DNA of 64,000 nucleotides from Escherichia coli (lineage in GTDB: Bacteria; Pseudomonadota; Gammaproteobacteria; Enterobacterales; Enterobacteriaceae). This document shows positions 20,203 through 25,792 of this stretch, piece by piece; within the stretch, counting starts at the first letter, position 1; the number at the start of each line of letters is the position of its first letter. The notes beneath the pieces were generated by a model, which worked only from the letters and a program-made list of their open reading frames with translations, was not told the origin of the DNA and ran no database searches. The position numbers and the translations under genes were made by a program. Location: assembly GCF_024502345.1 (NCBI RefSeq), contig NZ_JALDNN010000001.1, one strand, 5' to 3'.

Positions 20203-20510
20203 ATGAATAAGAAATTTAAATATAAGAAATCGCTTTTAGCGGCTATTTTGAGTGCAACCCTGTTAGCCGGTTGTGATGGCGGTGGCTCCGGATCTTCCTC
20301 CGATACGCCGCCTGTAGATTCTGGAACAGGGTCTTTGCCGGAAGTGAAACCTGATCCAACACCAAACCCGGAGCCGACGCCTGAGCCAACGCCGGACCCA
20401 GAACCTACGCCGGAACCGACACCTGATCCTGAGCCAACACCAGAACCGGAGCCAGAACCTGTTCCTACGAAAACGGGTTATCTGACCCTGGGCGGAAGCC
20501 TGCGGGTAAC
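20203..20510 (+). pseudogene. sslE: sslE (yghJ) lipoprotein, 5' fragment only (~100 codons), truncated by IS-derived sequence
   Basis: [24 protein letters not shown] lipobox and Pro/Glu/Thr-rich linker, then reading frame enters IS30 sequence. Confidence 0.7.
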
Positions 20511-20715
20511 CGAGCCAACAGAATGGCGAAAAGGCCAAAACCGTGCTTACTGGATCAAAATTTACCATTGCGAAAGCTTGTTCTGGAAAAGCTGGAGATG
20601 AAATGGTCTCCAGAGCAAATATCAGGATGGTTAAGGCGAACAAAACCACGTCAAAAAACGCTGCGAATATCACCTGAGACAATTTATAAAACGCTGTACT
20701 TTCGTAGCCGTGAAG
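20502..20715 (+). mobile_element. IS30 internal fragment (~210 bp of transposase coding region)
   Basis: Translation [68 protein letters not shown] matches IS30 transposase; no IS30 ends present. Confidence 0.65.
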
Positions 20716-20998
20716 CGCTACGTTGCTGGTCTGGAGTAATGGGTGTGGCAGAGGGCGTAATCCCCTGGCGCTCTCTCCTGAGCTGGCGTACCCAGCTCTC
20801 AAGCGTAGTAGAACCCACATTCATCGCTTCACTGGCCTGTCGATATGAGTAGCCCTTATCAACAATCAGCTGTGCACATTCCAGCCTGAACTCAGGGGTG
20901 AAACTACGTTTGGTTTTCTTGTTCATTAAGTCACCTGTTTTGTGTTGAGGTGAGAATATCACCTTTAATCAGGTGGCCAAATTTACTGTGCCACTACA
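20716..20998 (-). mobile_element. IS3-family (IS911-like) left end and orfA 5' part, truncated
   Basis: OrfA-like [55 protein letters not shown]; terminal sequence TGTAGTGGCACAGTAAATTTGGCCACC resembles an IS3-family IR. Confidence 0.6.
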
Positions 20999-21300
20999 AG
21001 CCGCCTTATATTCACCAGCAGGTTTTTCATCAGTGAAATGGCGCGTCCCACAGAGAGAATTTCAATAAACAGGTTAAGGTCGTTTTGTTTCAGGTAGTTC
21101 AGGAAGTCTGGCTCACTGAGACTTTCCCCTGCCTCCTCGTAAAAGCAGGCAATCGCTTCCATGTTATTCATGTAGGTGCTGATTGCGGCGTACTCGTGTC
21201 CTTCCATCTGTTCAAGGATGACCCTGACAGACTGCATCCGGTCGGTCAGTTTCGCATGTATGTCTGCATATTTAGCCTGACGGGGATTTATTTCACTCAT
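20983..21300 (-). CDS. Hypothetical 105-aa protein downstream of the MCP gene; 3' end overlaps the IS3-family end
   Basis: ORF co-oriented with and 100 bp downstream of the MCP; no recognisable family. Confidence 0.4.
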   Translation of the reverse strand: MSEINPRQAKYADIHAKLTDRMQSVRVILEQMEGHEYAAISTYMNNMEAIACFYEEAGESLSEPDFLNYLKQNDLNLFIEILSVGRAISLMKNLLVNIRRLVVAQ

Positions 21301-21399
21301 TATTACTGTCGCCTGTAAATAACCGGCACAGTGCGAACACCATGCCGGGAGATTATGGCTGACAAAACGGGAACGACAGGATCCCGCTGTTGTCGGGGG

Positions 21400-23082
21400 T
21401 CAGAAGGTTTCCCAGTTCTCGCTGGCGTGTTGTTCCGTTTCACGAACGGACTTTACCGCTTTAACCTTACTCTGCGGGCTGGTGTTGCTGATTGTCGGTA
21501 CTATGGTATTTTTTCGTTCAGCATCGCGTTTTTTATTATCACGGAGACGAAATACGCTCACCTTCTCCTGCAGAATCCGTGACTGATTCTGCAACGAAGC
21601 GGCAGTGGCTGCAGACTGTTCCACCAGAGCTGCATTTTGTTGGGTGGTGCTGTCTATCTGGCCCATGGCGCTGTTAATCTGGGCAATACCATCTCCCTGC
21701 TCACGACTGGCCTTGGCTATTTCGTCAATCAGCCCTTCCATGCTCTGGACGTTACTGATGATATCCTCCATTCCCCTGTCTGCTTTTTCAACCAGGGTAC
21801 GGCCGGATGCAATGCGGGAAACGGAGTCATCAATGAGCTCTTTTATTTCCCGCGCGGCAGAAGCACTGCGCTGAGCCAGATTACGAACCTCTCCGGCCAC
21901 AACCGCAAATCCACGGCCGGACTCGCCGGCGCGTGCGGCTTCCACGGCAGCATTAAGCGCGAGAATGTTGGTCTGGAAGGCAATCCCGTCGATGACCTGG
22001 ATGATGGCTGTCATTTCAGACGAGGTGTCGTAAATCTCCTGCATCCGGGAAGACACCTCACTCATGACCACTCCATTCTGTTTCACAATGGCCGTTGTTT
22101 CTGTCACAAACTGGTAAACCTGTGCTGTATTGCCGGCAGTATTGTTTATGGTGGCCGTCAGTTGTTCCAGAGTGGCCGCCGTCTGTTCCACACCGGCAGC
22201 CTGCTCTTCGGTGCGGGCTGACAGGTCTGTATTACCACTGCTGATTTCTGCTGCAGTCAGCGCAATATTGTCCGCTCCCTGACGTACTTCCCGGACGGTG
22301 TTACTCAGACTCCCGCACATATCACGCAGTGCCTGCATCAGTTGCCCCAGCTGGTCCTGTGAGTCCACTTTAATCTCCACACACAGGTTACCTTCCGCCA
22401 CTTCCCGGGCAATCCGGACGGCTGAAATCAACGGACTGGTAATGCTTCTGGTGATCAGCCATGCCAGCACACCTCCCAGAAGAAGCGCCATACACCCAGT
22501 GATGATCAGTGTCAGTATGGCTGCCGTACCATTATCAGCGATAACTTCACCCGCTTTATCTATGCTTGTTTTTTCGTATTCCACCAGTGCCTGCAGACTG
22601 GCCATGTAGTCATTTATGATCGGTAATTGCTGTGACTCAATGAAGTGGTTCAGGGCTTCACGGTCCCCCTGCTCACTGATCTGAAGAGCTTTTACCAGGG
22701 TATCTGCATACACCTGACGCTTTTCACCAATGGTTTTCAGCAGCTTAATACCCTGCTCTGAAGTAAGCTCCCTGTTAAATTTATCCTGCAGTATATCCAC
22801 GCGAGCACGGGTTTTCTCTATCCGCTGCTGTGCATATGTCCTGATATCCGGGTCCCCCGACGTCAGCAGAACCAGTCCAAGCGCACCGTTTGATTCAATA
22901 CCGGTCTGCCATTCATTCGCCATACGCTCCTGCAGAAGATAATTATTCATCACGCGATCGGTGGAAGTGAGCATAGAGTTCAGGTACCCCACTCCGGTCA
23001 CTGTCATGATCATGATAAGAACCAGAATTAGGCTGAAGCTGCCAGCCAGCCTGATACCCACACTAAAGTCTTTGATTTTCAT
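21400..23082 (-). CDS. Methyl-accepting chemotaxis protein, four-helix-bundle sensor, HAMP, Tar/Tsr-like signalling domain, C-terminal NWETF
   Basis: 560 aa; signalling domain VIDGIAFQTNILALNAAVEAARAGESGRGFAVVAGEVRNLA, methylation-region motifs, NWETF pentapeptide. Confidence 0.85.
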   Translation of the reverse strand: MKIKDFSVGIRLAGSFSLILVLIMIMTVTGVGYLNSMLTSTDRVMNNYLLQERMANEWQTGIESNGALGLVLLTSGDPDIRTYAQQRIEKTRARVDILQDKFNRELTSEQGIKLLKTIGEKRQVYADTLVKALQISEQGDREALNHFIESQQLPIINDYMASLQALVEYEKTSIDKAGEVIADNGTAAILTLIITGCMALLLGGVLAWLITRSITSPLISAVRIAREVAEGNLCVEIKVDSQDQLGQLMQALRDMCGSLSNTVREVRQGADNIALTAAEISSGNTDLSARTEEQAAGVEQTAATLEQLTATINNTAGNTAQVYQFVTETTAIVKQNGVVMSEVSSRMQEIYDTSSEMTAIIQVIDGIAFQTNILALNAAVEAARAGESGRGFAVVAGEVRNLAQRSASAAREIKELIDDSVSRIASGRTLVEKADRGMEDIISNVQSMEGLIDEIAKASREQGDGIAQINSAMGQIDSTTQQNAALVEQSAATAASLQNQSRILQEKVSVFRLRDNKKRDAERKNTIVPTISNTSPQSKVKAVKSVRETEQHASENWETF

Positions 23083-24546: not shown

Positions 24547-25017
24547 ATGTTAAAAAAATTAATAACTTTTTCTGCCATCCTGTGTACGGGACAAGCATGG
24601 GCTGCATGTGTGGATGGTGCAGCTGGCCCAAACGGCGTAGATAGTGCCACCGAAGGTAGTACCTGCGATAACAGCGGTACGTCATATATAGGGAATAATA
24701 CCGCTTATGCGAGCGGGTCAGGTTCTGTTCTTAATTTCTTACCTGGAACTGTAATCAGTAGTAATGGTGTTGCTGCCGTTTATACGCTTGCCGTGGGAGG
24801 AGTCAATAGTGGCGGTTCGATCCCTGGAGCTGGAGCAACGGTTCATGCAAAAGGAGATTTAACAGTTAATGGGAATGCTCTGGGCAGTACTCGGAGTATT
24901 TTTATCTTTTCTGGTACAGATGCAGGGGGAAAACGTAACTCACTTCAGATAGATGGAAACCTGACTGCAACGAGGACTGGCGGTCTTTATGGGGCTGTTA
25001 TAGGTGATAATGCCTGA
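24547..25017 (+). pseudogene. Autotransporter/adhesin-like secreted protein, N-terminal fragment (signal peptide plus Gly/Ser/Thr-rich beta-helix-like region)
   Basis: Signal peptide MLKKLITFSAILCTGQAWA followed by G/S/T/N-rich repeats; ORF ends where the antisense integrase fragment begins. Confidence 0.4.
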
Positions 25018-25548
25018 CTGGGCAGCATAGCGCATGATTGCAGTGATACGCTGCTGAAGGCGCGCTGCAATCTCATAAATCTCTTTGGCTTCGGCTGCCT
25101 TTACTGGAACAAGTAAATCGGGAGTTCTGAGGGTGGTAATGTCACGTGAACCGATAAAGGGAAACACATGAGTTTCTAGGCTTTTCAGTATCTTCTCACT
25201 ATGTGAGGCTGACCATTTTTTGTTGCTCTTATGCCACTGCCTTGCGATGCCTTCAAATGTCTGAGCTGTTTCGGGTACCGACTTTTTGATTCGTTTCTGT
25301 TCGCACGGGTCAGTTCCTTCAGCTATCTGCTTTCTCGCCGCATCGCGTTTTTCCCTTGCTTCTGATAACGAGACTTCAGGATAGACACCCAGGGCGAGCG
25401 TTTTCTCTTTGCCCAGAAACCGGTAGCGGAGTCGCCAGTAGCGCGAGCCGTTAGGGTGAACGAGCAAAAACATGTTGCCGCTGTCGGCAAGTTTATAAGG
25501 TTTTTCATCCGGTTTAGCTGCACGGATTTTAGCGTCAGTGAGCGCCAT
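25018..25548 (-). pseudogene. P4-type tyrosine integrase, N-terminal ~175 codons only (catalytic domain missing)
   Basis: MALTDAKIRAAKPDEKPYKLADSGNMFLLVHPNGSRYWRLRYRFLGKEKTLALGVYPEVSLSEAREKRDAARK matches P4/CP4 integrase N-termini; ~195 bp downstream of the tRNA-Phe terminator. Confidence 0.75.
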
Positions 25549-25704
25549 TGGCGGTATCTCCTGATAGTAAAAGGGGCATAAATTTTATCGAATCAGACTA
25601 TACCCTCAGTTGTACCCTCGCAAGGGGCTTGATGCGGGTAGAAGTTGATTGAGCTGGGTGGAGTTAATGGATTGAAGAGGTGTTGATTTCTGCGGGATTA
25701 GAAT

Positions 25705-25732
25705 GCAAAAACGGACCTCCGTGGAGGTCCGT
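25705..25732 (-). terminator. Rho-independent terminator downstream of tRNA-Phe
   Basis: Perfect hairpin acggacctcc-gt-ggaggtccgt followed on the minus strand by TTTTT. Confidence 0.6.
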
Positions 25733-25743
25733 TGATATGAATT

Positions 25744-25792
25744 TGGTGCCCGGACTCGGAATCGAACCAAGGACACGGGGATTTTCAATCCC
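25744..25792 (-). tRNA. tRNA-Phe (pheV/pheU type), 3'-terminal 49 nt only; island attachment-site remnant
   Basis: TGGTGCCCGGACTCGGAATCGAACCAAGGACACGGGGATTTTCAATCCC is the reverse complement of the tRNA-Phe 3' end including CCA; homology stops inside the anticodon arm. Confidence 0.8.

Follow-up and report, generated by a model that had tools for sequence, protein, structure and literature searches.

Positions 20203-25792 of a 64,000-nucleotide (nt) stretch of Escherichia coli DNA (contig NZ_JALDNN010000001.1 of RefSeq assembly GCF_024502345.1; the whole stretch is hereafter called the window) lie after glcDEFGB and glcA (18035-19717), which enter the region from the left on the + strand, and end in a fragment of a tRNA-Phe gene that adjoins a large defence island. 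An earlier note on this DNA had labelled the region a decayed island of the type found at the tRNA-Phe gene pheV, with a truncated sslE, a patchwork of insertion sequence (IS) fragments, a truncated P4-type integrase and no genes for the type II secretion system (T2SS). This label holds, and local BLAST searches against fetched loci together with NCBIfam scans recovered every element that the note had named. The features of the region and of its right-hand neighbor, including open reading frames (ORFs) of 105 and 156 aa and a methyl-accepting chemotaxis protein (MCP) gene, are:

20203-20510, + strand: 5' end of sslE (yghJ), codons 1-102 of about 1520 (ATG at 20203; 100% match to the sslE of EC596, ending at 20510)
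20507-20721, + strand: internal IS30 fragment of 215 bp, nt 330-544 of the transposase coding sequence (identical at 100% to the IS30 copies of G3/10, ET650 and C 236-04A)
20719-20998, - strand: left end of an IS3-family element with about 69 codons of orfA (NCBIfam transpos_IS3; contiguous with the MCP module in four chromosomes)
20983-21300, - strand: 105-aa ORF accompanying the MCP gene (hypothetical in the annotation of C 236-04A)
21400-23082, - strand: intact MCP gene of 560 aa, an island and plasmid cargo (NCBIfam MCP models, E about 1e-100)
23381-24030, + strand: IS26, nt 1-650 of 820 (100% identical to IS26 copies, starting at the left inverted repeat)
24029-24537, + strand: 3' part of an IS3-family orfB and the right end of the element (NCBIfam transpos_IS3, E 8e-67, profile positions 221-369 of 369)
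24547-25001, + strand: first 151 codons of an autotransporter gene, signal peptide and passenger start (N-terminus of a 392-aa 'hypothetical' protein in C 236-04A)
24997-25548, - strand: P4-type island integrase, codons 1-184 of 417 (Pfam Arm-DNA-bind_3 and Phage_int_M)
25710-25733, - strand: intrinsic terminator hairpin (terminator scan), 10 nt past the tRNA CCA end
25744-25792, - strand: last 49 nt of tRNA-Phe, positions 28-76 (exact match, 49/49 nt)
25793-39164: tRNA-Phe-integrating defence island (94-99% match to the islands of TUM2820, G3/10 (pheU) and F11; PADLOC hits)

In K-12 MG1655 glcA is followed by yghJ (sslE, 4563 bp), pppA, yghG, yghF, yghE, yghD, pheV, yqgA and speC, and the window shares this chromosomal neighborhood and gene order after glcA. 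Whereas K-12 has sslE at full length and yghD immediately followed by an intact pheV, the window retains 102 sslE codons (positions 1-104 of the 1519 positions of NCBIfam NF037973, metallo_SslE) and no gsp gene. The proposal that sslE ends after about 100 codons, with its frame entering an IS30 fragment, is borne out: homology to sslE ceases at 20510, and the frame continues into the IS30 DNA, out of register with the transposase, up to a stop codon at 20599-20601. A full-length SslE (about 1520 aa with an M60-like protease domain) is lacking, the remainder of sslE was not found within the window, and neither blastn nor tblastn recovered a gsp gene in its 64 kb, in agreement with the reported absence of the T2SS. 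The reference picture of K-12 against which these losses had been set is correct as far as the presence of sslE, T2SS-beta genes and pheV after glcA is concerned, but the annotated K-12 locus holds only gspC-, L- and M-type T2SS genes and not gspD-K. The T2SS-beta operon of K-12 is itself eroded. Erosion of the same flank is seen in several other genomes: in EC596 a truncated sslE is fused to a truncated gspL, in C 236-04A sslE is cut at codon 766, in G3/10 everything from glc through gsp is deleted and in 1368KP a truncated gspC adjoins IS1. Several times, and independently, the chromosomal flank at the pheV hotspot has been eroded; the missing sslE and T2SS-beta of this lineage are one instance.

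To the right of the sslE remnant the IS30 fragment meets the oppositely oriented orfA fragment (20719-~20998), and further on the truncated IS26 runs into the orfB tail, both as had been noted. None of the IS26, IS30 and IS3-family elements in the region is complete in its two terminal inverted repeats and its transposase, that of IS26 being cut after residue 195. The orfA piece and the orfB tail belong to one and the same IS3-family element, which an intact IS30 interrupts in C 236-04A, and whose orfA head and orfB tail are here separated and in opposite orientations. The 3.3-kb module spanning 20719-24030 (the IS3-family left end with orfA, the 105-aa ORF, the MCP gene and IS26 nt 1-650) is contiguous and 100% identical in four complete chromosomes and occurs on plasmids with 98.8-99.4% identity. 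In the same four chromosomes the segment 24029-25001 (the orfB tail, the right end of the IS and the autotransporter start) is likewise contiguous, with 99% identity. The MCP gene, whose product displays the Pfam 4HB_MCP_1, HAMP and MCPsignal domains, had earlier been described as a cargo gene; it is intact, and it and its small neighbor are the only intact genes left in the remnant. This neighbor, the 105-aa ORF, has no family match in NCBIfam or Pfam and is always found alongside the MCP gene, on chromosomes as well as on plasmids; its final few codons seem to come from the IS3-family left end, so that the ORF might itself be truncated. The leader and 5' part of the orfA fragment (20808-20930, - strand) give a full-length match of 140 bits to the Rfam model isrC (RF01387, 'Hfq-binding sRNA'), a model that appears to describe the end of an IS3-family element.

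The 156-aa ORF at the start of the autotransporter gene recovered nothing in Pfam or NCBIfam, and gave no match to the large autotransporter of the G3/10 island. Its autotransporter-like character, suggested from the sequence and retained here for the first 151 codons, comes by way of a 644-aa relative (P0003) with a PF18883 domain, which reaches a beta-barrel ORF beyond the IS3 insertion in C 236-04A. The integrase fragment contains the arm-binding domain and part of the core-binding domain, with the catalytic domain missing. It shows 99.8% DNA identity to an intact gene of 417 codons beside pheV in C 236-04A, and the full-length protein of that genome is 55.6% identical to the phage P4 integrase, which agrees with its identification as a P4-type N-terminus of 184 codons. 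The terminator flank of the tRNA fragment recurs after the intact pheV of 1368KP, C 236-04A and G3/10, and differs from the native flank of K-12. Hence, of the statement that the region ends in the tRNA-Phe terminator and the last 49 nt of the tRNA, the presence of both elements stands, but the terminator is the version carried by P4-integrase pheV islands and not the native one of K-12 pheV.

The region 20203-25792 is very probably a scar, no longer functional, left by an old P4-integrase island at pheV, and in a tandem array of tRNA-Phe islands it takes the outermost position on the glc side. Genomic islands with an intP4 integrase at E. coli pheV have been described as GI-pheV (PLoS Genet 2024, PMC11537424); about one third of those described lack the distal repeat (attR) and are shorter through deletions, and the direct repeat of intP4 islands measures 19-23 bp (PMC11537424). 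The scar resembles them in its location between the gsp/sslE side and the pheV 3' end, in a P4-type integrase read away from the tRNA, and in a cargo with autotransporter and IS modules. On its left lie glcA and the truncated sslE, and on its right the tRNA-Phe 3' fragment and the island-type terminator, as expected of a site 3' of tRNA-Phe and toward gsp/sslE-glc. Of the P4-type integrase gene that such islands have directly downstream of the tRNA 3' end, only codons 1-184 of 417 are present, without the catalytic domain, and a distal 19-23 bp repeat of the pheV 3' end is lacking in the window, the distal end having been replaced by the joint between sslE and IS30. Unlike GI-pheV, the island is down to about 5 kb, its deletion extends into core genes (sslE and the gsp operon), and it has lost contact with an intact pheV because another island integrated in between. 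The remnant is unable to excise, since both the catalytic part of the integrase and the distal repeat are missing. As a phenomenon this is already known, an ordinary and well-understood kind of genome scar.

The 49-nt fragment is, judging from comparison of the sequences, the displaced 3' end of pheV and at the same time attR, the direct repeat that bounds the defence island on its right, an island integrated in tandem. A fragment with an identical breakpoint is found in TUM2820 (at pheV), G3/10 (at pheU), EC596 and F11, and the sequence beyond the breakpoint is homologous island DNA in all of them (identical in G3/10 and similar in the other three). A 211-bp probe across the junction of the 49 nt with the island was covered to at least 80% in 31 of 5,426 complete E. 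coli genomes, the set used for all joint, probe and structure searches. In TUM2820 and G3/10 the fragment has a P4-type integrase on one side and, on the other, the distal end of a 23-kb island encoding HsdRSM, a DUF262/GmrSD-like protein, a conserved backbone and two or three integrases. About 23 kb away, at the other end of this island and beside its own integrase, is an intact tRNA-Phe, whose downstream flank and terminator differ and come from the island. It is the identical breakpoint, combined with the intact tRNA-Phe at the opposite island end in these relatives, that points to the fragment being attR. The window itself supplies the exact tRNA 3' copy, ending at CCA and with the constant breakpoint; the intact tRNA and own integrase at the opposite end are present in TUM2820 and G3/10 and absent from the window, where that end is deleted at 39159-39164. 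In EC596, which is without the P4-type island, the displaced 49 nt retains the native K-12 terminator and abuts yghD. The terminators of EC596 and the window therefore show that each incoming element supplies a new tRNA 3' part and terminator, with the older ones being pushed outward.

By this comparison, a defence island with its own tyrosine integrase entered pheV over a 49-bp segment of identity reaching from the anticodon stem to the CCA end. Such an integration restores a complete tRNA where the island has its integrase and leaves the original 49 nt, together with the old terminator, at its far end, beside the truncated integrase. The arrangement is reminiscent of other cases of tandem accretion (TUM2820 at pheV, and G3/10 at both pheU and pheV), in which an exact tRNA 3' fragment likewise lies between two islands, the far end has an intact tRNA and every element comes with a terminator of its own. 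The window differs in that the integrase end of the inner island is deleted, and the repeat is 49 nt long rather than the 19-23 bp of intP4 islands. A repeat of this length fits a different integrase lineage, and the tRNA-proximal integrase of the defence-island family is indeed only 24% identical to the P4-type integrase, the two belonging to different lineages. The crossover itself might have taken place in the anticodon loop, as deduced from what Williams reportedly set out in 2002, namely that islands accumulate in tandem at a single tRNA gene and that a displaced tRNA 3' fragment borders each of them.

The defence island that borders the fragment encodes a beta-flower protein, a type I restriction-modification (R-M) system (HsdRSM), a GmrSD-like DUF262/HEC-05 protein, a WYL regulator, one tyrosine recombinase and a truncated DUF927 protein. 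Defence islands with integrases as their only mobility genes have been described at tRNA hotspots of E. coli (Hochhauser et al. 2023, PMC10121019). The neighboring element is similar to these in combining type I R-M, a GmrSD-like gene and several integrase genes with no other mobility genes, and in a cargo that is swappable between conserved ends; it lies outside the remnant proper and matters here only as the explanation of the 49-nt fragment. It has suffered an internal deletion of 2.8 kb at 36295/36296, which removed the backbone genes from DUF3944 to DUF2787, and it is cut inside DUF927 at 39159-39164, where a 6-bp overlap (microhomology) fuses it to the DUF5983 gene of a CP4-like island. 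This cut and fusion came after the integration. In F11 the defence island is directly followed by a CP4-like island, and no tRNA-Phe sequence was detected in the interval that is deleted in the window; a tRNA was hence not necessarily among what the deletion took away. The pheV array of G3/10 consists of an integrase fragment (99.8% identical to that of the window), a 45-nt tRNA fragment, a variant of the defence island, a 23-nt tRNA fragment, the large CP4-like island and finally an intact pheV followed by yqgA. Positions 44631-64000 of the window are 100% identical to four genomes, including the pheV island of G3/10, in which the intact pheV is 29 kb further on than the match to the right edge of the window. 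An intact pheV is accordingly expected further to the right, outside the window. Neither the right flank of pheV (yqgA-speC) nor that of pheU (dicD-dsbD) was found in a search of the window.

The five retained segments of the scar are linked by four joints, which base-level mapping placed between sslE codon 102 and IS30 nt 330 (J1, 4-bp overlap), IS30 nt 544 and orfA (J2, 3 bp), IS26 nt 650 and orfB (J3, 2 bp), and autotransporter codon 151 and integrase codon 184 (J4, 5 bp). As none of them coincides with an IS terminus, they represent joints of illegitimate recombination and not products of transposition. All five segments map within 17.5 kb of the pheV island of C 236-04A and its flank. An island like that of C 236-04A would thus once have occupied the interval between sslE/gsp and pheV, with the order IS26, MCP gene, 105-aa ORF, IS3-family element split by IS30, autotransporter, integrase and pheV with an island-borne terminator. 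Deletions only could not turn this arrangement into the scar, in which the MCP module is reversed and has moved to the other side of the IS30 piece. Illegitimate recombination at microhomologies of 2-5 bp would have generated the four joints, with the loss of 93% of sslE, the T2SS-beta operon in its entirety, most of the cargo and the catalytic domain of the integrase, and with an inversion of the 3.3-kb MCP module. Two inversions with deletion and one further deletion would be the minimum needed; serial template switching would fit as well. A single replication-based event of this latter kind in a bacterial genomic island, resembling microhomology-mediated break-induced replication (MMBIR) or fork stalling and template switching (FoSTeS), is suggested by the 2-5 bp of microhomology at each joint, the origin of the segments from no more than 17.5 kb and the inversion of one 3.3-kb segment, and is on balance an unlikely source of J1-J4 in place of separate deletions and inversions. 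The joints could have formed either before or after the integration of the defence island.

The joints recur outside this assembly. The chimeric protein combining the SslE start with IS30-derived residues is encoded on three other contigs, one of which, from the draft genome GCA_050022275.1, is 100% identical to positions 10203-23457 of the window (13.3 kb), including J1 and J2. A second contig of that genome (contig 124) spans J4, J3 and 77 bp of IS26, its joints being identical to those of the window, and the chimeric integrase ORF across J4 is found on 13 contigs from isolate, metagenome and Logan assemblies of several samples. Given this recurrence in independent assemblies, the joints reflect real deletions and rearrangements. 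In most assemblies with J4 the integrase fragment adjoins the 49 nt and the type I R-M island. On the metagenome contig ERZ19692831, which also has J4, the 49 nt is followed by an island variant with a Bil-like cargo (Multi_ubiq/ThiF/BubE). Contig 124 of GCA_050022275.1 (positions 1-520) is devoid of both the 49 nt and the defence island, and has beside the truncated integrase a 23-bp attR-like repeat (TTTCATTCCGAGTCCGGGCACCA) and then a ParE-type toxin gene. These differing neighbors of the J4-bearing integrase imply that either the scar is older than its present neighbor or the neighbors have been exchanged by recombination.

One alternative is that pheV itself decayed, i.e. that through an insertion or deletion without site specificity the defence array took the place of its 5' 27 nt and tRNA-Phe was lost at this locus. 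The earlier note had leaned this way in holding that the array replaced the 5' half of the tRNA, and there is indeed no intact tRNA gene in the 64 kb (ARAGORN), while the integrase-proximal end of the defence island, the usual seat of the rebuilt tRNA, is deleted. A search of the whole window with the 23-mer of the pheV 3' end, permitting up to 4 mismatches, detected only 25744-25766 and no other tRNA-Phe-derived repeat. However, a random break would have to account for a boundary that is identical to the base in TUM2820, G3/10, EC596 and F11, and at both pheV and pheU, for the intact tRNA-Phe at the opposite island end in TUM2820 and G3/10, and for the 31 complete genomes in which at least 80% of the junction probe is covered. 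Furthermore, F11 shows no tRNA-Phe in the interval deleted here and G3/10 has its pheV intact past the match to the window edge. The decay of pheV is therefore highly improbable; the replacement of the 5' half is not upheld, and the absence of an intact tRNA-Phe within the window, literally true, does not amount to a loss of pheV. An artefact of assembly, with collapsed or mis-joined IS copies concealing an intact sslE, T2SS and integrase, has even less to recommend it and is extremely unlikely. Three of the segments are repeats (215 bp of IS30, 650 bp of IS26 and the 510-bp IS3-family tail) that an assembler might traverse wrongly, a wrong path through the IS26 or IS30 piece could link real joints from different places, and no complete RefSeq genome has the joints in common with the window. 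Against this, the four joints are inside genes and away from repeat boundaries, their overlaps of 2-5 bp are too short for a mis-join in the assembly graph, and J1 with J2, as well as J3 with J4, were recovered on independent draft contigs, alongside the 13 contigs encoding the protein across J4.

A third possibility leaves the scar as it is and concerns the array: recombination between pheV and pheU islands, by way of a large inversion across the origin, might have produced it, so that its right end would be pheU-yjdC and not pheV-yqgA. The identity of the pheU and pheV genes and the occurrence of the defence island at either locus (pheU in G3/10, pheV in TUM2820) are compatible with such an exchange, as is the location of the large island: G3/10 has it at pheV, C 236-04A and 1368KP at about 4.3-4.46 Mb, which is presumably the pheU side. 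Still, of the four genomes with 100% identity to 44631-64000, G3/10 bears the island at pheV and 2022CK-00450 near the same coordinate (about 0.85 Mb), whereas identity drops to 99.7-99.8% in the two genomes that have it at 4.3-4.46 Mb. Moreover, G3/10 combines an integrase fragment, a tRNA fragment, a defence-island variant and the CP4-like island at pheV without any inversion, and we regard the recombined array as improbable. Some observations do weigh against the reading of the region as a P4-integrase island scar at the edge of a pheV array. The large island of C 236-04A and 1368KP is not at pheV, which makes an exchange between the two tRNA-Phe loci possible. The tRNA-proximal integrase and attL of the defence island are deleted, and its integration is not reconstructable from the window sequence alone; likewise the intact pheV would lie outside the window, and its presence in this genome is inferred from relatives rather than seen. 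None of J1-J4 occurs in any of the complete genomes searched: none covers at least 80% of 20400-20800, of the IS26/orfB joint or of the autotransporter/integrase joint, and none covers at least 80% of 19700-26500, i.e. shares the overall structure. The ancestor is therefore a model, and the arrangement of C 236-04A on which it is built does not yield the observed order of segments by deletions alone.

Several further observations pertain to the neighboring islands. The gene for the beta-flower protein (26070-26414, - strand; '5-fold beta-flower'), at the attR-proximal tip of the defence island, contains 48-nt tandem repeats (KDDRLRTIATFDGKTL units) that differ from those of G3/10 in both number and sequence. 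A comparison of window positions 25804-34790 with ERZ19692831 revealed the same island ends (the 49-nt attR side and the backbone) enclosing a different cargo, namely Peptidase_M78/helix-turn-helix and Multi_ubiq-ThiF-BubE (Bil-like) genes, at the position occupied in the window by type I R-M and GmrSD. Such identical ends around differing cargo define a cargo-swap hotspot next to attR in this island family. Relative to G3/10, the CP4-like island has a 3.5-kb deletion at a 15-bp overlap (39590-39604) that removed the genes from CbtA/YafW to WYL, and at 43573-44629 a gene for an IS5-family transposase stands in place of 348 bp of the G3/10 sequence. The large island at 44631-64000 encodes paralogues of core metabolic genes (a truncated appC with appBA, ykgEFG, dld, a lactate permease and a diguanylate cyclase).

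Beyond correct annotation the importance of the region is slight. A tRNA 3' fragment beside an island, as seen here, is to be read as the attachment-site repeat of a tandem island and not as a destroyed tRNA gene. The remnant of the P4-integrase island is fixed in place, and the strain is expected to be without the secreted SslE mucinase.

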